DNA of 63,907 nt, counting the filler, from Basidiobolus ranarum (Eukaryota), in assembly GCA_040143965.1 (NCBI GenBank). It is 3 parts of 3 records of this genome, joined end to end, with 100 filler letters (N's around TTAATTAATTAA, not from the genome) between each part and the next. Parts side by side here need not be neighbours in the genome. Positions count along the whole stretch, not along the records: positions 21,426 to 42,735 come from JASJQH010000209.1; 2 more parts are not named here. One strand, 5' to 3'. A program made the position numbers and the translations under genes. The notes under the pieces were generated by a model that had not been told where the DNA came from, made no database searches, and saw nothing but the letters and a program-made list of their open reading frames with translations. This document shows, one piece after another, positions 5,302-54,398 of the stretch (its first letter is position 1; every line of letters starts with the position of its first letter).

Positions 5302-8300
5302 TTATCTTAATAATTTAAAAGGTGCTTTAGCCAGAGGTTTGGTTAAGATGTCAGCAATCATTTCTGCTTTAGGACAATAGAGAAGTTGAATTAAGTCATC
5401 CTCTATTGCTTTTCTAACAAAATGCTGCCTAATACCTGAATGTTTTGTTCTAGTATAAAAAGCAGGGTTTTTAGCTGACGAAATATAACTTGGATTATCT
5501 TCAAACACAGTAATAGCACATTTTTGCATGTATCCTTAGTCTGCAAACAACTTCTTAAAACTCATAGCTATTTGTCTGGCAGCAGAGGCAGCCATATACC
5601 CTGCTTCTGTAGTGAAAGTGCTCCAGTTGGTTGCTTTGTACTATTTGAAGTTGAGGCTCCATAACCATAGAGAAGAGCATATCCAGTTGTCAATCTTCTA
5701 TCATTGAGGTTTCTTCCCCAGTCTGTATGACTCTAGCCTTCAAACTTTTGTGCATCAGGTGTGGGAGTGTATTCCAAACCTTAATCTACTGTTCCTCTCA
5801 AGTACACAAATATTTGTTTCACTGCAGTTTTGTGTTCATATCTAAAATTTATGAGATATTGCCTGTCAGTTCCCACTGCTACAGCAATTTCTGGACATGT
5901 TCCAACCATTGTATACAATGAACTACCCACCATGGATTGATAAGGGAGCTCCTGGCTTTGATTTGAGTTGTATTGGGCCAAATTGGATGAAATTTTGATT
6001 TACTTCACATTGAGATCCATTGGTGTTGATACAGGCTGAATATTCACCGTGTTGAAGCATTTAAAGATATCTATGATGTATCCAATTTGATTCACTATGA
6101 TTTTTGGATTAGGTTCATCTTTCTTGATTTGGATGCTAAGGAAACAATTTAATTCATTCATATCAGTTGTCTGAATTTGGTTTGATAATCTGCTTTTTGT
6201 CTGATTATGTGCTTCTCAAGCTTTGTGGCTATGATCAAGTCCTCTACATATAGTGCCAAGATAAGGATCCTATACTGTGATCTGCTGTTTATTTTTGGAA
6301 TTCTTGTGATTCCAAATAGAAATCTATCTTGTTGTATCATGCCCTGCATGCTTACTTGAGTCCATATAGCCATATTTGCAATTGACAGACCATATCAGGG
6401 TGGTTGGGGCCAACAAATCCATATGTGTGCTCTATATAGATCTCTTCTTCTAGATTTCCATTCAGAAAGGCTGATTTTTGCATCTGTTTGATGTAAATCA
6501 AGATTATGGATGGCTTAGAGTGCCAGGATTGTTCTGATTGAGGTAAGGTTAGCTACTGAAGCAAATGTTTTATTAAAATCAACTCCTGGGGACCAGTTAT
6601 AACCTTTTGCAGCTAATGTTTCTTTATACTTTTCGATGGTTCCATCAGCTTGGCTTTTGGCTTTGTATATCCATTTGCAACCTGTTGGCTTTCCCCCTAA
6701 TGGTAGGGGACTTAAAACCCATATTTGATTGTCACAAAGTGAAGAAAACTCATCAGACAATGCTTTTTCAGTAATCTTAACTCTGGATGCTCCAGAGATT
6801 AATTTGGAGTCTGTGGCTTGTCACATAATGCTGCATACACATATACATAATCATTGAAAGTGATCCACCTGGTTCCTGGCTAGTTTCACCTTCTGGATCA
6901 TTTTTGAGTTCCTGAATCATCCTCTGCTGTAATTGAGCCTGGAATTTTGTTGCTTAAGGCTCAGATAGAGCTGGAAGTTTGTCAGACACTTTATAAATAG
7001 TGCTGATTGTGCTTTCTGGATCAAGAACTGTGATTTGAGATGAAAAATCTACTTTTTCATCAATAAATCACATCTCTGTACCTAATGACCTTCTAATTTT
7101 TAGTAGCACACAGTCTTTTGGCCTTAGAGGCATTGGAGTAACCAAGAAATATGCATTTTCTGCTTTTGGGTTCCAATTTAGAGCTTTTTTTGAGTAGGAA
7201 TAAGGCTATAGACAGTGCAATCAATGATCCTGAGATGATCCACACTTGGCTTTGATCCATATGGGGCTTAAAATGGAGTATAATTTTGCAGTAATCTTGT
7301 TGGGCATCTGTTTGCAAATGAGACTGCAATGGAGCCAGATTCAGCCCAATATTGGTAATCCATTTTTTGCTCATATAACATTAATCTTGCCATCTTCATT
7401 TTGGTCCTATTAGCACATTCTGCAACTCCATTTTGCAGTGGAGTATAAGGCACAGTAGGTTGATGCTTAATTCCATGTTAAGTACAAAAATTAGCAAAGT
7501 CTTCAGAGCAGTATTGTTCACCATTATCACTCCTTAGCACCCATATTTTTTATGCCAAATCTTTTTATGCCATTGCTTCAAAGGGCTTGAACCTAGCTAA
7601 GGATTTAGATCTTGATTTGAGGCAGAATACACAAGTATATCTTGTTTTATCATCAATACAGGTCATAAAGTACCTGTTGCCACCTAATGAGATATTTCAC
7701 ATGGGCCCACATAGGTCAGAATGAATCAGGGCCAAACTCTGAGTGGATTTGATTTCTCTGGAGCTTGAAAATGGCTGTCTGTGATGTTTTCCATATATGC
7801 AGCCTTCACATAGATCCAATTAAGTTTTATTTTTAATTTCTAAGCCTGAACCAAGCTAATTTTGAAACATTTGGTTCAGTCTTTGTTCCCCAAGGGGACC
7901 TAATCATCTATGCTATGCCATACAGCTTTTTCACTTGTTTTGGCCAAGTTTGCATGCTCTGAATGCATCCAGTGCATAGTCATTACTTGAGTAAACTTCC
8001 CATGTTTGGATAGGCTTTAAGCTGGAAAACCAATGTTTCTTGTTTGATATATGCTGGGAAGCTCCTGAATCAATGTACCACATTTCAGAGTCTTCCTTAG
8101 TGGTTACCAATGGGGCAGACACAAATTGATGATCTCCATCAGTGCTTACTTGATTTGCTTGTTCCAATTTCAGCTTTTTGGCAAAAATCCTTTTGCTGCA
8201 AACTTTGAATAAATGGCCTGCTTTCTTGAAATACTTGCTGATGATTGATTTCCTATTAGGGCCACCATTATTGAAGCCTAAAAATGCCTGTTCTGCCAAA

Positions 8301-8837
8301 TTTTGCTGAGAATTTGATCTCCTTAATACCTCATTCACAAGCCTAGCAACAAAATATTCCATTGTTAATGGCTCTGATCTTGATTCTAGGGCAAATGCAA
8401 GGTTCCCAAGCTTGTCTGGCAGGCTCCTAAGTAGTGGCATGACTAAGTCATCTTCATTTAGAGGTGCTCCAATGGATGAGAGCTGATCAGCCATAGTTTT
8501 ATCTAATTTATGTGATTAAGCATCAAGTGTTTCTCAAGCATTTTGGATACTTTTGGTTGATTATATATACTTCAATTGAGAGTCTTAGAGATGTAAACAA
8601 AGTGTAGAGTGTGCTCTCCTCTTCTTCTTGTGAAAGGTAACAATAGCTTTGGGTGGATCCTTGGGCTCTATTTCTTCTACTTTAACAAATACCCAAAGGT
8701 CCTTGTCTTCAAGCACCACTTGCATCTTGAACTTCCAAAGGTGAAAGTCTTCACCATTAAACCTCTCTGTGGATGCCAAAACGTTGGTTATAGTACTGGT
8801 AGATATTCCTTTAATGGCTAGCTCAGGGCTCATAGCT
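5302..8837 (-). mobile_element. Degenerate Ty1/copia element internal region (gag, protease, integrase, RT, RNase H)
   Basis: Gag FNGEDFHLWKFKMQ, protease WYIDSGAS, integrase TPLQNGVAE, RT GCKWIYK and LYVEDL, RNase H FEDN...RTKH in copia domain order. Confidence 0.93.
8824..8837 (-). promoter_or_regulatory. Primer-binding site complementary to the tRNA(iMet) anticodon arm (Ty5/copia half-tRNA type)
   Basis: Minus strand AGCTATGAGCCCTG directly follows the LTR CA; the expected form is GGTTATGAGCCCTG. Confidence 0.7.
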
Positions 8838-12834: not shown

Positions 12835-15240
12835 ATCAAACCCACTCACAATTTTCCCTTGATTCATTCTGACCTTTGTGGGCCCATGAAAAACTTCTCA
12901 CTAGGTGGCAAAAGGTACTTTATGACCTTTATTGATGACAAAACAAGATATACTTTGTATTTTTGCAATTCAAGATCTGAAGACTTAGCTACATTCAGGC
13001 ACTGCAAAGCAATGGTAGAGAAAGAATTAGTACAAAAAATAAGTGTCCAAGCAGTGATAATGGTGGACAATACTGCTTTGTTATACACATGGAATTAAGC
13101 AACAAACTATGGTATCTGATTCTCCAATGCAAAATGGAGTTGCAGAACATGCTAATAAGACCAAACTAAAGATGGCAAGATCAATGTTACATGATCACAA
13201 GTTAGATTACCTATCTTGGGCTAAATCTGTCTCCATTGCAGTCTATATCAAAAACAGCTGCCCAACAAGATTGCTACAAGATTGCTACAAAATTCTACTC
13301 CATTTGAAGCCCTATATGGATCAAAACCAAGCTGGGATCATCCCAGAATATTTGGTTAGACAACAAATTGACTAATTCCAGCTCAAAAATGTACTAAATT
13401 GGAACCTAAAAGCAGAAAATGCAAATTTCTGGGTTCTAGTGATGGATCTAAGGCCCGCAGACTGTTTGATACCCAAAATCAGAAGTTCACTAAGTGCAAA
13501 GATGTAATTTTCTGATGAAAAAGCAAAAATTTTTACCTCAAATCACAGTTCTATATCGAGAAAACATAATCAGCACTAATCAGAGAGTGTTTGACAAATT
13601 TCCAGCTGTATCTGAACCCTATTCAACCACAATTGCAGTCCCAAATACATCAGAAAATGATTTGGACTAAGAAGATCATCCAGGAGGAGAAATAAGCCAG
13701 GAAACTGGTGAAACACTTGCAATGCTGATGTACATTCTTATGCAGCATTCTGTGATGAGCCACAGAATCAAGATGAAGCTTGGGAGTGTTGAGAATCAAA
13801 ATCCTGGGAAAAAGTAATGTCTGATGAGTTTTCTTCACTTCAGGACAATAAAACATAGGTGTTAATTCCACTACCATCAGGGAGAAAGCCAATAGGTTGC
13901 AAATGGTTCTACAAAGTGAGAAACTAAGCTGATGGAGCCATTGAAAGGTACAAACCAAGATTAGTTGTAAAAGGTTATTCACAGACTCCAGGAGTTGATT
14001 TTAATAAAAAACTTGCTTCAGTAGCTAAGCTCAACTCCATTAGTTCAATCCTGGCACTCTGGGCCATCCATAACCTTGATTTACATCTAATAGATGTAAA
14101 AAACAACCTTTCTGAATGGAAATCTAGCAGAAGAGCTCTACATGGAGCAACCAGTTGGATTTGTTGACCCAAAACATCCTGAGATGGTCTGTAAGCTGCA
14201 AAAACTGCTATATGGACTCAAGCAAGCACCCAGGGCATGGTTCCACAAGATAGCTACCTATTTGCAATCACTAGAATTCCAAAAATGCACAGCATATCAC
14301 AATATATATATTGAAACATCCAGAAATTGGATCCTTATCTTCACACTGTATATGGGTGACTTGATTGTATCCACAAATGATCTAGAAGCACTTAATCAGA
14401 CTAAAAGCAGCTTATCAAACCAATATCAGATGAATGAGAGGGGTGAATTGAGTTATTTTCTTGGAATTCAAATCAAGAGTGATGAATCCAATCAGAAAAG
14501 CATGCTGAATCAGTCTAGATACATCCTAGACATCCTGGGATGCTTCAACATGGAGAATAGCAAGCTTGTATCAACATCAATGGATCTGACTGTGCAGTTG
14601 ATCAGAATTTCATCCAACTTGGCCCAAAATGACTTAAATCAAAGCCAGGAGTTGCCTTATCAATCCATGGTGGGTAGTTTAATGTAAATAATGCTTGGAA
14701 CATGTCCAGACATTGCTGTGGCAGTGGGAACTGTCAGCTAATATCTCAAAACTCCAGGATCTGAACACAAAACTGCAGTAAAACAAATACTCAGGTATTT
14801 GAGAGGAACAGTAGGTTAAGTTCTGGAATACTCTCCCATGCTTGATGCACAGAATTTTGAATGCTATGGTGATGCATTCTGGGAAAGAAACCTTGATGAT
14901 AGAAGATCAACAACTAGGTACACTTTTCTCTATGCTAATGGATCCTTAACTTGGAATAGTAAGAAGCAACTGACCATAGCATTTTCCACTACAGAAGCAG
15001 AGGATATGGCTGCCTCTGCTGCTACACCAGAATCTATGTGGTTAAGGAAGTTATCCACAGATTTAGGATACATGCAAAAACATGCTATTACCATATTTGA
15101 AGATAATTACAGTTATATTTCATTGGGCAAAAGCCCAAACATTTCACACTAGAGCAAAACATATAGATATTTGGCATGTTGTTGTTAGCGAAGCCATAGA
15201 GAATGATATAGTTGAACTTGTCTATTGCCCTACCAAAGGA
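12835..15240 (+). mobile_element. Degenerate Ty1/copia integrase-RT-RNase H copy
   Basis: [37 protein letters not shown]...STTEAE, FEDN. Confidence 0.92.
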
Positions 15241-23993: not shown

Positions 23994-24897
23994 CTAGGGA
24001 GTATATTCGAAGATCTGGTTGGCACTCAGGGCGAAATTTACTCGGGCTTTCGATGAGCTCGGCTTGGAAGATTCAAACTGGGTTACTTCGACCCTTTGTC
24101 GGCGTAATTGAGCACGCATCTCTCGAGCCTCACGTTCCTCACGAGCTCGCCACATTTTCACTTGCGATTCACGTTTGAATCTTCTCACTTGGCGTTCCAG
24201 TTGGGTTAATTTGGCCGGAAACGGATATTCTATATCTGAAATTTGATCCTCTGGGGACATCTGTGACAACGTAGTGTCTACATCTTCTATTGTCAGATCT
24301 ATAGCGAGACTTCTTGAGCTACCGCTTGTTTTCGAATATGTGATACAATTCAGTGAAGATGAGTCGTATGGCTCTGGACATTCTGGTGTCAATGCAGGGA
24401 TACTTATATCACTCTCCAAAGCTGAACCTGTGTTCTCCTCGCCTGGGTCTTGAATGTGTATTATCTCCAGCGTTTCAGTCAAAGCTTTAATCTGAGTGTT
24501 CGAAGACTGACTTAGTCAAATATTAAATTAACCTTAAAATATAAATCATTGGTATTTCCACATAAATAACAACCATACCTTCAGAGTGAATTTACCATCT
24601 TGGCGTTCCAAAAATCCATTAGGTTTTTGAATGTCGTCCATTAGAGCAGAATAAAGAGCTAGGTAGGAATTTCGACCTCTATACAGTCAGTGGGTTAGTT
24701 TTCTTTAGTCATTTAAAAGTAAGAATAATAATAATAAGTTAAAATATACGTGGTAGAAATAAGATAGTTACTTACGAAGTACGCTTTAGATCCTTTCTAG
24801 ATATATCTTGCAAAATTTCCACCACGGTCCAAAGTTTACTTGAATCGAAAGAATCTTTCATTACTTCAACCGCACATTCCACCCACGTCTTGGGCAT
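23994..24897 (-). CDS. HARE-HTH (ASXL N-terminal-like winged helix) protein with C-terminal RVxF motif, 3 exons, ~244 aa
   Basis: Exons 24897-24776, 24678-24579 and 24506-23994 join in frame via GT-AG introns: MPKTWVECAVEVMK...WTVVEILQDISRKDLKRTSGRNSYLALYSAL...FTLK; C-terminus KARVNFALSANQIFEYTP. Confidence 0.75.
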
Positions 24898-25285: not shown

Positions 25286-25658
25286 ATGCCATTCCCCAAA
25301 GAAGCTACGGCACCTATTAGAGAGCAAATACAAGACCCCCGTTTGATTGGAAAATACAGAAGACGAATTTTATCTGCCGAGTCTTTAAAACCTACTCTCG
25401 CTTCTAAAGCTATTGGTTTCTTTGCCACCACCTTTTCAGTTGGTATATTCGGCTATTTTGTATTTTATCACGATTTTGGCATGGATTACCATTGCTTTAC
25501 ACCAGTATGTTGTTCATATTTTTTTCATTCAATAGACCTATCATTAACTTGTATCTTGGTTATACTAGATACGTGGCTGGGCTCATCGTAAGCGTCTTGA
25601 GTTTTGGACACTTTCATCTGAGGAAGAACAGGAACTTCGAGAACAGGGCAAAATATAG
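25286..25658 (+). CDS. Small single-TM membrane protein, 2 exons (intron ~25505-25568)
   Basis: GT-AG splice gives ...YFVFYHDFGMDYHCFTPIRGWAHRKRLEFWTLSSEEEQELREQGKI*. Confidence 0.7.
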
Positions 25659-39690: not shown

Positions 39691-40655
39691 ATGTCTACAT
39701 CTTTGGATCTGAATCTCCCCTTACAAACTCCCAGCATTGTACCTCACTTCGACACCAGTAGTTTGGACTTCGGCTTCAGTCTAACTCAGGAAGACCTTTT
39801 ACGTGTTAAAGCTCACTTTGTCAGTGAGATTAAAAGTGGACTTTCCAATGCTGGTTCAAGTCTGGCTATGCTCCCTGGTTATATTTCTTCCCTTCCTACT
39901 GGTGAAGAAACGGGTAGATTTTTACTGGTTATGATTAACGAGGCGACCCTTGGAGTTGGCGCTGTCACATTCTTAGGTGGTCGAAAATATGAGCTTACTC
40001 TACAAAAATACGTGGTCGATGCACACGTTAGAGAAAATGCGAAGAACCTGTTTGATTTCTTGGCCAAATGTTTGGCTTCTTTATTGAACGAACTCCATAT
40101 TCCTCTGAACTCCAATTTACCACTTGCTGCTAGTCTAGCATTCCCATTGAGGTTAGTTTTAACATCCCTATTTCCTCTCTATTCCAAATCATTAACCATG
40201 GGTCATTTTAGAAATCAAGATTTTGGGAAAACTCAGGTTATCTCTTCCTGTAAGGGTTTCAAAGTTCCTGGCTTATTGAGTAAGGATGTAGCCGAGTTGC
40301 TCTTTGAAGCATTGCAACGAAAGGTATTTCGTAGTTCCTTTCAACCTCTTACTTAATACAATAACTAACTCCTAATTTCAGAACATTTTAGTGGATATCT
40401 TAACCATCCAAAACGACACGGTGACTAGTCTTCTTGCACATGCCTATTCTGTTTGCTCACAGACCACCATTGGCTGTTTCATTGATTCCGGTGTAAATAT
40501 TGCTTATCTCGATTCATTGGAACAGTTGCCCAAATGGAAATCTCTCTTGGGAGTAGATAAAATGATTTTCAACACTGAATGTGGAGGATATAATGTTGAA
40601 GGTGCACAGATCAAACGTAACAAACTTGATATCAGAGTAGATCTAGAGTCATCAA
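39691..40655 (+). CDS. Divergent hexokinase-like gene, 3' truncated
   Basis: LAMLPGYISSLPTGEETGRFL, LFDFLAKC, KGF, NDTV.SLLAHAY, NTE.G; homology ends at ~40655 where transposon DNA begins. Confidence 0.8.
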
Positions 40656-41614
40656 TGTTAATCAGATCAGCATACAGTAATACTAACAATTTCACATGAA
40701 GCTTCATTTCACTGCAGGTGCACTCCATTGGGAACTTCCAGAATATATAGCAAGGGCCTATAATCTCTAAGCATTGTGAAAGATGCAGCAGAAAATATAT
40801 TGAATACTGGCATATACTCAGTCTATCTTCTTTAAACCTGTAATAAAGTTTTTCATATCCAATTACAAAATGTTTGCACTATTGCTATATCTGCCTGAGA
40901 TCTGCCAATGTGAGTTGATGCCATAAGAATATATTAACAATATTGACAAATAACTCCACATGTTGCCAATACTTATCAGGCAGGAATCTTTTTAAATTCC
41001 ATTTAAATATATACAAATCCAATACTTCCAGTTTTTGAATTTGAATAAATGCCTAGATGAGTGGATATTGACAGGAGTCCAGGTAAAATATGATGGTATC
41101 TTGATGTTTTAAAGCATTTTTCCAATTGATTCAAACTTTGATCCTATCTTATATGGCTCATTCATATTGAATTTACCACTATGTAGCTGAGTAAGCAGTA
41201 TCAGAATGTTGTTGATTAGTAAGTGCATAGTGCCTAATGGAAAGCTCTGGCTCTAGCTAATCCCCTTTAGCAATATAATCTCAAGCTTATGGCTAATACC
41301 AAGTTTGATGTTAGACTGACTATATGGTGAATTGATATCAGTGATCATATTGAAATCTGACCGGGCTCTTGATGGTAAAATCAAGAAGTTTAGCATTGTA
41401 TTTGGATAGTAGTAATGCATATGCCTGTCAGAGTAAACTCCATTGATTTGACAAAATCTACATCATGATTGTGCATTGTGCCTGCAAAAACCTCCAAGTT
41501 TACTAATGGCAGGAGTGTCACCAATATATGCAATAATATTAGCTTTAATAAATTTTCACCCATATGAACCCCATTAGATAAAAATTTGAATTCTGCAATT
41601 TAAGGCTCCAAGAA
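40656..41614 (-). mobile_element. CMC/CACTA-like transposase fragment
   Basis: FLEP, IGDTPAI...GFCRHN, YEKLYY...RL, WKFPME...YADLIN; CpG-depleted; homologous to 12400-12830 and 15575-15970. Confidence 0.8.
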
Positions 41615-42735
41615 CCCTAGCAGAAATATGAGGATTGTGATTGTAGGAAAACCATCACAATTTTAATCCATTTGGGATTGACCATTCACTCACCATCATA
41701 AAATCATCTGGTTAGATTTGATTTTGATCAATTTTTTCAGTCTCAGGAGTGAAATTTCAAGATCTTGCAAAATAGTTGCGCATGATTGGCTACAATCTCA
41801 GAGAACCATGGATGAACACATGTGCAAATAACATAACTCAAATTTTACACAATTACCACTTGAATGCTAATTTTTCACCTTCAAAATCCCTAGTCTCTTT
41901 GATATATTCTCCTGAATATTTTTATAGAGTTCTTCATACCCAAGGTTTAGCTCATACCCAACACAAGTTTGTATCAATATCTCCATCAAAGCACACCTTT
42001 GTATTAATGTTGATGAATCAACATTCTTCCAGCTATCTGGCTGATACCCTGTAATATTGTGCCACTCAGTATTAAGTTCTTCCCAGATATCTGCATGGTC
42101 AACACCAGACTGAACATCAAGTTGAATTTTCTTCTTCTGAAGCCACTTTCTGCATACTTATACTGTGTTTTTCCCTTCATACTTTTGGAAATACTCCTCA
42201 AGCACTTTGACTATTTTTGTACATCCTTGTAGTGTGACACTACTGAGGGTGCTTTGTGGTGTTTGTGTGGCTTTTTGCTTGCCTTTAACTTTGGGGCTAA
42301 TTTCAACACTTTGAAAAGTACCAGTTGAGGTTGGAGAGCTGTGAGTTTTATTTGCTGGTGTTTTGGCTTTTTGAGAGGTGCCAGGTGTTGGATAAACTTC
42401 CAAATTTAGCACTCTTCCAACTGGTGTACCCAGTTCCATGGTGAAATTAAGCTTTTTTGCCAGTATATCTGACTCTGGAATTGCAAAACTTTGTAATGAT
42501 GTGAAAATTTGGTAAGTGGGACAGTAGAGCCTAAACTCACTGGCTCCTTTGCTTTTCCCTTGGGTTTACTAACTTCCTGCTCCTTCAGTACTTCTTTAGC
42601 TGCTTTTCTTTCTTTTCCAAGTTGATAATTGCGTACATTTTTGAGATATTTCATGAATAGGCCTATACTAGCCCAATTGCCATTTGCTTGCAAAAACCCA
42701 GGATAAGCCACATGAAATAAGTCAAGAACCTTCAG
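41615..42735 (-). repeat. Third (inverted) copy of the CMC-like terminal segment, end CCCTAGCAGAAAT
   Basis: Reverse complement aligns with ~17690-18795. Confidence 0.85.
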
Positions 42736-42835
42736 NNNNNNNNNNNNNNNNNNNNNNNNNNNNNNNNNNNNNNNNNNNNTTAATTAATTAANNNNNNNNN
42801 NNNNNNNNNNNNNNNNNNNNNNNNNNNNNNNNNNN
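42736..42835. other. Artificial contig spacer
   Basis: 44 N + TTAATTAATTAA + 44 N. Confidence 0.97.
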
Positions 42836-43983
42836 GACTCTTTCCAACTTCCCCCTGGGGGGGACATGTGATTACTGATGTAATCAGCAAACTTACAACT
42901 ACTACCAACTCAATCCCCCAGCAAGACCCAGATTCCAGAATTTGCCCACCACCGAACACTGTCACTAGGTGATTAACCAAATTTAGGATATTCTTAATAT
43001 GTAAAGATCAATAGAGTTGGGGACAGCAAATAACTTGACAACAGGATCTCTTACCTTCTTCAATTGTTCGGTCAATGCCATCTGTTACCAACTTAATAGT
43101 TTCTAGCTCGGTGGTATAGAGACGGTTGGTTCCGTATTGACAGTATTTGTGGCATAGACGTATGAGAAATCTCCAATGAATCGCGTGTAGCCTTATTGGC
43201 CATGTACTTGTCAAAGCCTCTGGTTAAGAATAAGTAAGTCAAGAGAGAATACTGTTAGGGTTAGGAGAAAATAATCTCACGATTTGCTTAAATAGATATT
43301 TTGTTTTCAGCAACGGCAATGGAAAGTAGATATACTCATTATACCAAAAGGTGACTTGGGCAATTGAGAACATTAACTAGCATCGTAGATGCCAATGATT
43401 GACTTCACTCTCATGGCCTGATTTCTAAATCTAAAGAGACTCTGCTCATCAAGCCTCCTAATTTCACATTTATGATTCATGCCTTGGGTGTAGAAGCAAA
43501 TCCCTGGGAATATGGAGTATCCACTTGCTAAACAGTTTACCATCCCATGCACCAGCTGGTTACCCCTGCTGGATTGGTTTGGACATGGACAGATGTTTGA
43601 CAGTGAAGCGCAGTATCGATGTTGAGAGGTATCTTGATTGATCAAAACAAGCATTGGTAATCTCCTTATCTAGTCATCAGTTTGTAAATCCCAGAATTCA
43701 ACGTGAGAAACTTGAGAACATCTAATCCTAAACCGCATTGCTATCCTTAGCTCCAGGTGCTTTCAATTATTCGTATGATGAATAATAATGATGATGGTAT
43801 ATTGCACATCAGTTACACGAATCGTGGAGTCGGCATCATCATTGGTTGGTTTCATTTCGCTCAGTTGCTTTATTTGAGACTTGGGCATGGGAAAGCATAC
43901 TAGTATTGATTGGTCAAAAGTGATGATTTGGCTTTAGCTAGGTATTTCTCAAGTAACTTCTAAATATTTTCCCTTCATTTCCA

Positions 43984-45411
43984 ATGTTAAAGCTTTTTGG
44001 TAAAACAAAATTCAACGGTGGCTTTACTCCACTCAATACGCTTTGTTCAGCTGCTAAGAACCGTATTTACCTGAGGTCTAATATTCTTCCTTTGGCTTCT
44101 CAAGTGAAGTCAACATCAACTCAGGCTGGTAGTACGGATAAGACCTCAATTAAACCAGCTACTCGTGTTGGCAAAGCGGAGCTCGATGTTTGGACTATGT
44201 TTAATATGGCCGCTACTGAATTTGAGGCAGTTAACCTCGGTCAAGGCTTCATGAATTTCCCTGCTCGTGATTTTGTTAAAGAAGCTGCTCGTTCAGCAAT
44301 CCTAGATGACGCTTGCAACCAATATGCTCCTCCTCGTGGTAGACCAAGATTGAGAAATGCTCTTGCAAAAGCTTACGGTGGCTTGTTTGAACGTTCTCTT
44401 CACGCCGATTCTGAAATCCTTGTGACTGCCGGTGGGAATGAAGGCTTATTATCTATTTTTATGGCTTACCTGGACCCTGGAAGTGAAGTTATTTTGATGG
44501 AGCCAGCTTTTGATCAGTATATGCCAAATATCACAATGGCAGGTGCTATCCCTGTGTTTGTTCCTCTCAAACCCCGTGAAGGTGTTGACCCCACCACTTC
44601 CAATATCTCTTCTAAGGATTGGGTACTTGATATTGAGGAACTCAAGAGTAAGATAACATCCCGTACAAAAATCATTGTCCTAAATACTCCACACAATCCC
44701 ATTGGCAAAGTATTCAGTCGTGGCGAACTAGAAGCTCTTGGTAAAGTTGCCGAAGAACATAATTTACTTATTGTCAGTGATGAAGTATATGACCGTCTAG
44801 TATTTGATGACCAGGAGCATATTCCCATTGCGACTATACCCGGTTTGTGGGAACGGACTTTGACGGTTGCTAGTGCTGGGAAAGCTTTTGGTGTTACCGG
44901 TTGGCGTGTTGGGTGGGTTATTGGTCCCGAAAAGCTTGTCTCTCCTGCACTTGCCACTCATACTCGCATCGTTTTTTGTGTTTCATCACCAATGCAAGAG
45001 GGTATTGCTAGTGCCTTTGAGCAAGCAGAAACCAATGAATTTTTTGACCAGCAACGTGAAGACTATATTAACCGCCGTAATAAACTAACCAGCGCTTTTG
45101 ATGCAGTCAATCTCCCGTACACAATCCCACAAGGTTCTTATTTTCTCTTAGTTAACGCAGAACGTCTTCTTAAAAAGATTCCGGATGATTATCCATTCCC
45201 TGAGCACATTACTGCTAGAGGTAAAAACTATGAGCTCTGTTACTTCTTCACACGTGAGATAGGAGTAAGCTGTATTCCACCCACTGAATTTTATTGCGAA
45301 GAAGATCGTCACTTGGCTGAAAACTATGTTCGTTTCGCCTTTTGCAAAACCGACGACATCCTTGATGAAGCTGCCAAGCGTCTTCTTAAAGTAAATAAGT
45401 GGCTTAACTAG
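43984..45411 (+). CDS. Class I PLP aminotransferase, kynurenine aminotransferase (Bna3/KAT)-like, with mitochondrial-type presequence
   Basis: NLGQGF, NQY, NTPHNPIGK, SDEVY, SAGKAFGVTGWRVGW, RFAFCK; basic N-terminal extension. Confidence 0.92.
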   Translation: MLKLFGKTKFNGGFTPLNTLCSAAKNRIYLRSNILPLASQVKSTSTQAGSTDKTSIKPATRVGKAELDVWTMFNMAATEFEAVNLGQGFMNFPARDFVKEAARSAILDDACNQYAPPRGRPRLRNALAKAYGGLFERSLHADSEILVTAGGNEGLLSIFMAYLDPGSEVILMEPAFDQYMPNITMAGAIPVFVPLKPREGVDPTTSNISSKDWVLDIEELKSKITSRTKIIVLNTPHNPIGKVFSRGELEALGKVAEEHNLLIVSDEVYDRLVFDDQEHIPIATIPGLWERTLTVASAGKAFGVTGWRVGWVIGPEKLVSPALATHTRIVFCVSSPMQEGIASAFEQAETNEFFDQQREDYINRRNKLTSAFDAVNLPYTIPQGSYFLLVNAERLLKKIPDDYPFPEHITARGKNYELCYFFTREIGVSCIPPTEFYCEEDRHLAENYVRFAFCKTDDILDEAAKRLLKVNKWLN

Positions 45412-50878: not shown

Positions 50879-51893
50879 TCAAAATAGAATCACTTCAGGG
50901 GATAGTAAAGCTTGTGAGTATGAAGGTAAATACTCTTCCACCGTCTCGATCGGAGGCATAATAATCAGCGAACATTTTAGCACAATCGATTTAACTTTGC
51001 TCTTAGCTTCGAATAATATACAAATCTCTAGTTGATGCTTCACCGATATGAGGTCGTTGCTCATATCTGGAGTGATCCTGGGCTGGCAAGGAATTTTTAC
51101 ATAGAGAAGCTTGCTCACCAAGGAGGGTGGATCAGAAACAGAGTCTTCTCTCAAGGGGAACCAACGCTCCATCGATCCTTTCTTTCCAGCCAACTTCTCG
51201 AATAGCCCAAATTTCACCCCCAAAATTTTGACATGAGTAAACAAGGGCCATAAATTGAACTCTATGGGAAGTTTCTGCCCCAAGGTCACTACTTTTCGAT
51301 CGATCGTCATTTGATATTCTAGATGTTCTGGCCAGCTATTACTCATCATTATAGAATCGAAAAGGTCAACCTCGTTAGAAACGTGATAGCGATTCACTAT
51401 GATCTTCTTATGTGATCGTATTTTAGTATGAAGCCCAAACCCTGGCTTCTTCAACACTGAAGTCAAAGAGTATTTGACGGCTAACAAGCGAGTTTCTACA
51501 CTCTCGGCCATATCACCACATACGGTAATCTCGAAGGGGAAAGTATGAGTTCCCGCGGGGAGGGTAATTGAAGTTTCATGTTCGATACCGAGGAGTACGG
51601 ACTTCCACAGAGTCTGTGTACTCACCGAAGTCAAGGACCATATTTTGTAATCTATCAATCGAAATCAAGAGCGTTAAATTCATTTGGAATCTGTGAGAAA
51701 TACGACTAGACTACCTACCATATTTGTGAAGCTTCGAGCTTAAACTTAAAGAGAGGGAAATAATCTTGGTGGGCTTTTTCAAGTGAAGTAAGACATGTCC
51801 AGTTAGAAGAATATCCGGAGCATCCAGTGCTCCTCCCATCAACGTAATGTTGGTCTTGGATGGGTGAATTTCCAACGCTGTTATTTCAGTCAT
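50879..51893 (-). CDS. Alpha-arrestin (ART-like) 1, 2 exons
   Basis: LTGHVLLHLKKPTKI, LPAGTHTFPFEI, arrestin-C domain, LPSY PY motif. Confidence 0.85.
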
Positions 51894-53391: not shown

Positions 53392-54398
53392 TCAGTAGAG
53401 AACCAATCTAGGGGTTAATAGCGCTTGTGTGTATGTAGGCAGCTGGTCTTCAGTTTCATCAAAGGGCATGGTGATGACTAGCTCACATTTGAGTCTAATT
53501 GAGTTGATCTTTTCAGCCACAGTGAAAATAACCCTCATCTCCAATTTGTGTTCCACTTGGATTAGCTGATTTTTCAAGTCCGGAAAGACTCTAGATCGAT
53601 AGGGGATGTGAACCTGAATAAACAGGCACCTATTAACTGACGAATTCGATACGATATCATTTTTGACCGGCAACCAACGCTCCAATTTTCCATTCTTACT
53701 AACGACTTTCTCCAATATTCCCGACTTGACTTCCAGAATCTTCACCTCCTCGCCCAATGGTCGCCATGTAAACTCCACTGGGAGATTCTGCCCCAAAGTG
53801 GCTAATTTGGTGTCGAGCAGCATCTCGTACTCGAGATACTTCGGCCAACGGTTGGTGACCACAACCCTATTTAGCTCATTTATCTCCTCTTCGGCTGTTC
53901 TGTACACTTGGATCTTTTTGGAACTATGTAGGGAAGTACCTATACCGAATCCTGGTTTCTTCAAAACTGTTACTAGGGAATATTTAACACTCACGAAGTC
54001 ACTAATCAAGCTATCTGGTAAATCCTTGTGCAGCGGTATCTCAAAAGGGAATTTATGAGTTCCCAGTGGGAGCGTAATCGATGGATCCTCCTCAGCTGCA
54101 AGTAGTACAGCTTTCCACACAACTGTGGGTGTGACAGGCTTTATAGCTGATAATCCTAGTAAAGAGAATATCGATAAGTATATGGATACGATATTTGTGA
54201 CAGAGCACCTCTCAAAGACTTACCGTGTTCGTTAACTCTGGACTCGAAACGCAGGGTGAGCGATATGATTTTGGTAGGCTTATTGTTGATTCGTAGGAAT
54301 ACGTTTCCCGTCAATACTCCACCGGTCACGTTGACATTGGAGTTGACCAACCTAACCTTATCACTAACAGGACATATCTTCAACATGGAAGAATTCAT
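53392..54398 (-). CDS. Alpha-arrestin (ART-like) 2, 2 exons
   Basis: Paralog of 50879-51893: LPLGTHKFPFEIPL, VLKKPGFG, LPTY PY motif. Confidence 0.85.

Follow-up and report, generated by a model that had tools for sequence, protein, structure and literature searches.

A predicted protein phosphatase 1 docking cassette joined to a HARE-HTH-type winged helix in a hypothetical protein of Basidiobolus ranarum

The specificity of protein phosphatase 1 (PP1) comes from docking subunits. The hypothetical protein K7432_005358 of Basidiobolus ranarum (P0001, 239 aa) is probably a PP1-targeting subunit with a new combination of domains. The full reading (HARE-HTH-type winged helix, acidic linker and PP1 docking cassette, acting together as a targeting subunit) is favoured at slightly better than even. 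Its gene was read from the sequence and the frame as three exons on the minus strand, at 23994-24897 of the window (the whole stretch of DNA that was analysed, 63,907 nucleotides). Its features are given below in the order of transcription; coordinates are those of the window.

24776..24897, minus strand: exon 1; residues 1-40 plus 2 nt; first half of the winged helix; ATG at 24897.
24679..24775, minus strand: intron 1; 97 nt, phase 2; GTAAGT...ACTAAC...CTGAC...TATAG.
24579..24678, minus strand: exon 2; residues 41-74; the half of the winged helix with recognition helix and wing.
24492..24578, minus strand: intron 2 as annotated; 87 nt, GTATGG...CAG; acceptor at 24492, as in P0001.
23994..24491, minus strand: exon 3; residues 75-239 and the TAG stop (23996-23994).
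24222..24491, minus strand: acidic linker, probably disordered; residues 75-164, net charge -15; pLDDT <50, no secondary structure.
24069..24215, minus strand: basic helix with MyPhoNE motif; residues 167-215; AF2 helix, pLDDT 70-94; conserved throughout the family.
24150..24173, minus strand: MyPhoNE-type motif RESQVKMW; residues 181-188; regular expression R..Q[VIL][KR].[YW].
24033..24044, minus strand: RVxF motif RVNF; residues 224-227.
24009..24014, minus strand: hydrophobic pair (phi-phi) I234-F235; six residues after F227.

The predicted docking cassette and the fungal family that shares it

As read from the translated gene, the C-terminal part of P0001 carries a cassette of three putative PP1-binding motifs: MyPhoNE, RVNF and a hydrophobic pair, in this order. 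The acidic linker, the basic helix and an RVNF followed by a hydrophobic pair had been listed in a first-pass annotation of this DNA and are all present as described. RVxF-like strings are common by chance, and the looser RVxF pattern is [RK]-x(0,1)-[VI]-{P}-[FW]. The site of P0001 (K-A-R-V-N-F) has this loose form and not the strict one, [KR][KR][VI]x[FW] (PMC11728760), its prefix reading A-R-V-N-F. It is found in a segment predicted to be disordered (pLDDT <50 at residues 222-227 and 232-239). The MyPhoNE consensus is given as RxxQ[VIL][KR]x[YW] in two published accounts (PMC11728760, PMC10296329); P0001 matches it literally, N-terminal to the RVxF motif. The spacer between the MyPhoNE Trp and V225 is of 36 residues in P0001 and of 31-47 residues in most members outside the Mortierella group.

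Relatives of P0001 found with phmmer align to residues ~150-239 only. A profile built from 10 of these tails retrieved at least 71 proteins at E<=1e-3, a lower bound on the range of the family (lengths 215-2000 aa; best 8000 candidates scored). All of these bear the name "hypothetical" or no name at all, and no precomputed Pfam domain is listed for any of them. They are found in Mucor, Rhizopus, Phycomyces, Pilobolus, Umbelopsis, Bifiguratus, Mortierella and relatives, and Basidiobolus. Altogether at least 77 proteins of this unnamed family were retrieved, from Mucorales, Umbelopsis, Bifiguratus, Mortierellomycotina and Basidiobolus. Six bacterial repeat proteins that matched in several stretches (P0003-P0006, P0012 and P0015) were left out of the alignment of 77, because they matched the acidic linker only and are probably spurious. 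These phmmer matches cover linker residues 74-128 (24330-24494, minus strand) at E 1e-12 to 5e-4 and ~31% identity, and correspond to the repeat units of the bacterial proteins; in the sister species, this part of the linker shows little conservation.

Only five columns of the 77-protein alignment are invariant: R177, R181, Q184, V225 and F227. Four of them are the Arg and Gln of MyPhoNE and the Val and Phe of RVxF. The first-pass annotation had made its reading depend on conservation of RVNF in orthologues, and V225 and F227 are each retained in 77/77 members. The columns show the following pattern. MyPhoNE: R, Q, [VIL] and [KR] in 77/77 each; final position W/Y in 44/77 and L in 33/77, the latter in members of Mortierellomycotina type. 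The strict MyPhoNE expression is found in 44 of the 77 proteins, once in each, at the aligned site only. RVxF: K/R at position -3 from the Val in 72/77 and at -2 in 62/77; among the 57 members in which the motif can be placed by regular expression, 22 have the strict form and 49 the loose form. Hydrophobic pair: V/I at column 234 in 73/77, I/F/L at column 235 in 77/77.

The Mortierellomycotina proteins (P0052-P0083) differ at two of these sites. Their final MyPhoNE residue is always L, not W/Y, and Cys frequently precedes the RVxF Val (C-V-G-F). The two changes go together and may follow a change in the PP1 of these fungi.

The winged helix is not a feature of the family: in a Pfam scan of the 77 members (E<=0.01), HARE-HTH was found in one, P0001. 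The other 76 have variable Ser/Thr-rich N-termini without a fold, and the annotated orthologue of Basidiobolus meristosporus (P0002, 156 aa) is without winged helix. No ankyrin repeat was found in P0001 at E<=10 nor in the 77 members at E<=0.01.

Literature searches returned no paper joining HARE-HTH with phosphatase 1 and no paper joining RVxF with Mucorales; for MyPhoNE with fungal proteins, only Ppz1 was returned. The combination of HARE-HTH with a PP1 docking cassette has probably not been described before, and the cassette family is probably uncharacterised. Few animal regulators are known to have MyPhoNE; one study counted 7 (PMC11728760). A fungal family of at least 77 members, in which the key residues of MyPhoNE and RVxF are invariant, provides a non-animal test case for the evolution of composite docking. 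It also allows dozens of "hypothetical proteins" of Mucorales, a group that includes human pathogens, to be named by function.

The predicted PP1 complex and alternative partners of the tail

No PP1 gene was found within the window. The catalytic subunit that was modelled is a stand-in, chosen among metagenome-contig ORFs that were retrieved with a short, degenerate active-site pattern, and is not the PP1 of Basidiobolus itself. This ORF (L117:209-1168, 320 aa) has human PP1-gamma as a match at E 2.9e-188; in its alignment to full-length PP1-alpha, the numbering is offset by +2. Its partner in the model was the segment of P0001 from residue 155 to residue 239.

The complex scored 0.90 (median of 3 runs) vs 0.05 for the best of 3 controls, a mark that 51/78 solved complexes and 2/108 mismatched pairs reach. 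The score has no calibration for peptides or disordered chains. Since many RVxF-PP1 complexes have been solved, this pass may reflect likeness only. Contact agreement between runs was at least 71% and the pLDDT of the partner at least 58. The confident contacts of P0001 are residues 223-229 and 231-239; the MyPhoNE helix is outside them. Those of the stand-in are residues 22, 72, 76, 164, 166-167, 240-241, 259, 269, 277 and 286-298. With the +2 offset, they include I169, L243, R261, L289, C291 and F293 of PP1-alpha, which correspond to the RVxF pocket. In one description of this groove, the Val sub-site is made of Ile169, Leu243, Leu289 and Cys291, and the Phe sub-site of Leu243, Phe257, Cys291 and Phe293 (PMC3387161).

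The predicted complex supports docking of RVNF on PP1 in the canonical groove. The RVNF with its downstream pair had already been read as typical of PP1 regulators; the MyPhoNE motif upstream and the passing complex model make the PP1 reading stronger than it then was. From motifs and model, it is fairly likely that the tail really binds PP1. The cassette would clamp the PP1 catalytic subunit: V225 and F227 would fill the RVxF groove, and I234-F235 would run along PP1 strand beta14. The MyPhoNE helix could help to clamp PP1, and the acidic linker would give reach.

The tail, a helix followed by a short strand, could instead serve another partner (nucleic acid, importin or an unrelated protein), the PP1 motifs being coincidental. 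The helix is highly charged (18 K+R within 75 residues of the tail) and absent from the confident interface, and the final MyPhoNE position is L, outside the consensus, in 33/77 members. No PP1 regulator came up in sequence searches of PDB chains with P0001, with the tail profile or with P0009 (E<=10 for the latter two), so the link to PP1 is at the level of motifs only. Against coincidence, the invariant columns are defining residues of two PP1 motifs in their known N-to-C order, the strict MyPhoNE expression is found nowhere else within the 77 proteins, and the modelled chain occupies the canonical groove at a score far above that of the controls. Another partner is considered unlikely, and PP1 remains the preferred partner of the cassette.

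Known PP1 regulators resemble P0001 in part. In the MYPT family (MYPT1/PPP1R12A), as in P0001, a MyPhoNE helix precedes RVxF in one disordered docking segment; both motifs of MYPT1 are described within its disordered N-terminal 40 residues, MyPhoNE folding on binding (PMC13545437). MYPT proteins have ankyrin repeats, whereas P0001 has none and no such Pfam match; it is therefore not a MYPT. Its cassette is C-terminal, not N-terminal, and includes, unlike that of MYPT, an additional hydrophobic pair after RVxF. No sequence homology was detected between the solved MYPT1 chain and the tail of P0001. SH2D4A/B is a non-MYPT example of binding to PP1 through MyPhoNE (PMC13545437); these proteins are metazoan and have an SH2 domain.

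Spinophilin, PNUTS and NIPP1 are PP1 regulators of the RVxF-plus-phi-phi type, with a spacing of 5-8 residues. As in P0001, where the pair is modelled along PP1 strand beta14, two hydrophobic residues come a few positions after their RVxF. Their sequences are unrelated to that of P0001 and their targeting domains are different. P0001 ends four residues after the pair, so no Arg motif is possible.

The N-terminal winged helix and its possible target

Residues ~1-75 of P0001 very likely adopt a HARE-HTH-type winged-helix fold. The Pfam HARE-HTH profile (PF05066) matches the joined protein at 17.6 bits, E 0.005, over residues 4-73 and profile positions 2-68/71 (67 of the 71 positions covered). 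The E value refers to all 24,736 models scanned. The family had been named beforehand, and the match is significant as a pre-named single-family test. The search proposed in the first-pass annotation thus gave the expected family, at a score under the curated gathering cut-off (17.6 vs 25.9 bits). Exon 1 by itself gives 13.1 bits over profile positions 2-33/71.

The structural evidence compares predicted models on both sides. The ESM Atlas model (residues 1-78; query residues 1-80) overlays other models at TM-by-query 0.76-0.82. PF05066 is the aligned part in 7/9 rows of the search, 3 rows pass the threshold for naming, and a chordate ASXL cluster is among the rows (TM-by-query 0.81); the first-pass annotation had already likened this N-terminus to that of ASXL. 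In Atlas feature matches, rated as a lead only, HARE-HTH clusters are 2 of the top three (0.89). The single-sequence AF2 model gives, at low confidence, H5-14, H19-34, H42-57, E62-67 and E70-75, i.e. helix-helix-helix-strand-strand (pLDDT: mean 45, ~40 over the winged helix). A Foldseek search of the PDB with this low-confidence model gave nothing at E<=0.001 and a few winged helices at E 1-4, which are uninformative.

No relative of residues 1-73 was found at E<=0.001 in an exhaustive phmmer search of 1.84 billion representatives, and a word-indexed search with residues 1-76 (lengths 131-419 aa) returned the query itself only. NCBIfam gave 0 matches. Of 156 pattern matches from a metagenome scan for P0001 relatives, none was confirmed. 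Two PHROGs matches at E 0.1-0.3 were judged to be noise, and two tape-measure proteins matched by tblastn against phages at E 7 are spurious.

ASXL1-3/Asx: like P0001, these proteins have a HARE-HTH-type winged helix at the very N-terminus. They have in addition DEUBAD/ASXH and a PHD finger, and recruit the BAP1 deubiquitinase. P0001 has neither domain (no Pfam match to DEUBAD or PHD at E<=10, in line with the first inspection) and is thus not an ASXL; PP1 would be its effector. The nearest structural neighbours of residues 1-78 are prokaryotic fusions of HARE-HTH with a Mrr-type endonuclease (PF05066 + PF04471). P0001 differs from these by the lack of a nuclease domain; it is encoded by a eukaryotic spliced gene and has a phosphatase-docking cassette as partner of the winged helix.

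From its fusions in restriction-modification systems, HARE-HTH has been proposed to be a modified-DNA reader (PMC4738411), and pull-downs with the HARE-HTH of ASXL1 are reported to show binding to 6mA DNA and not to 5mC (PMC6591016). By analogy, the winged helix of P0001 might read DNA or a modified base. Its net charge is +1. Such a nearly neutral charge is unusual for a strong DNA binder, and DNA binding by this domain is therefore not self-evident. Targeting of DNA or chromatin by the winged helix is put forward tentatively, at slightly less than even. The winged helix would select the site of action and bring the holoenzyme to nucleic acid or chromatin.

P0001 could also bind PP1 as an inhibitor or a substrate, its winged helix being a protein- or RNA-binding module with no part in DNA or chromatin targeting. 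The UniRef label of P0001, "HTH OST-type domain-containing" (LOTUS-like), would suit such a role, as would the near-neutral charge of the winged helix and the Ser/Thr-rich, unfolded N-termini of the 76 other members, as found in substrates or regulators. The label itself is at odds with the searches: Pfam OST-HTH has no match in P0001 at E<=10 where HARE-HTH is matched, and 0/9 structure rows are OST-HTH clusters. This alternative is rated as distinctly unlikely, and we infer a targeting rather than an inhibitory role for P0001.

If the winged helix binds DNA or a modified base, P0001 would offer a case, open to direct test, in which a DNA mark recruits a phosphatase. Levels of 6mA are reported to be unusually high in early-diverging fungi (PMC11258239, PMC8298701). 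A broader scenario, put forward as a speculation of low probability, is that the early-diverging fungi have an ancient portable cassette of the three motifs, older than the animal MYPT/SH2D4 proteins, which Basidiobolus joined to a HARE-HTH possibly of bacterial origin, giving a holoenzyme recruited by a DNA mark such as 6mA. If true, a 6mA-recruited holoenzyme would link DNA methylation directly to protein dephosphorylation.

The gene model and the surrounding DNA

The winged helix and the cassette are placed in one protein by splicing, which is predicted here from genomic sequence. The N-terminus had been described as spliced and missed by the ORF track; the track did miss it, but the public annotation already had the gene. 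All peptide strings quoted at that time are present in the spliced minus-strand reading. The NCBI protein is the spliced product with the second acceptor of intron 2. The translation of exon 3, used as a query, matched P0001 at 99% identity and also P0002, which covers only the C-terminal part.

The ATG at 24897 is the earliest one downstream of an in-frame stop. Both introns have canonical splice sites and keep the reading frame. ACTAAC and CTGAC inside intron 1 are branch-like sites. Removal of this intron restores TC|A (Ser41), and a single HARE-HTH alignment spans the junction of exons 1 and 2. Exons 2 and 3 are 72-87 nt apart, with compatible phases. Intron 2 has two in-frame acceptors, 15 nt apart (24507 and 24492). 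AG at 24508-24507: 72-nt intron, ...FTLK|SSNTQIK, with five additional residues SSNTQ. AG at 24493-24492: ...FTLK|IKALTE.

The frame of exon 3 is closed upstream by TGA at 24516-24518 and its earliest ATG encodes M150. Residues 74-150 are nevertheless conserved as protein between P0001 and P0002: gaps are whole codons, and overall identity is 46%. The exon-3 region thus needs a start upstream. The three-exon model is highly likely to be correct, the joining of exons in RNA being predicted from sequence. That the model is an artefact, the winged-helix exons being unexpressed or belonging to a product separate from the cassette exon, is very improbable: splicing is read from the genome alone, the Pfam score gains just 4.5 bits from exon 2 and the model of P0002 begins just before the conserved LTETLE block, without winged helix, but exons 2 and 3 are almost adjacent, the splice sites and frame are intact through both introns, and exon 3 encodes conserved residues between its upstream stop and its first ATG.

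The alternative acceptors of intron 2 (24492-24507, minus strand) would give isoforms with or without SSNTQ. A similar S-K-N-Q stretch in the B. meristosporus protein at the intron-2 junction hints that the proximal acceptor may be used.

Two copia gag/RT ORFs are found in the leftmost third of the window.

7931-8515, minus strand: copia gag/RT ORF.
14100-14687, plus strand: copia gag/RT ORF.

The repeats of this genome had been said to show a methylation footprint. This footprint is real: CpG o/e is 0.00-0.10 over the copia-rich region at 1-20 kb, vs 0.57-0.99 in other genic bins. Over 1-21000, which is retrotransposon-rich, CpG is almost completely lost and TpG/CpA is 1.33-1.48. A second CpG-poor patch is found at 40-44 kb (40001-44000; CpG o/e 0.24-0.30). 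This pattern, limited to repeats, is the mark left by cytosine methylation at CpG sites and by deamination. It is of CpG/5mC type and does not bear on a 6mA reader.

Next to the gene, the ORF at 25286-25591 (plus strand) is divergently transcribed, its start being ~390 bp from the ATG of the gene; it encodes a hydrophobic segment and has no Pfam match. Farther away, ORFs at 50879-51664 (minus strand) and 53392-54219 (minus strand) both encode Arrestin_N and Arrestin_C domains and are probably a tandem duplicate.
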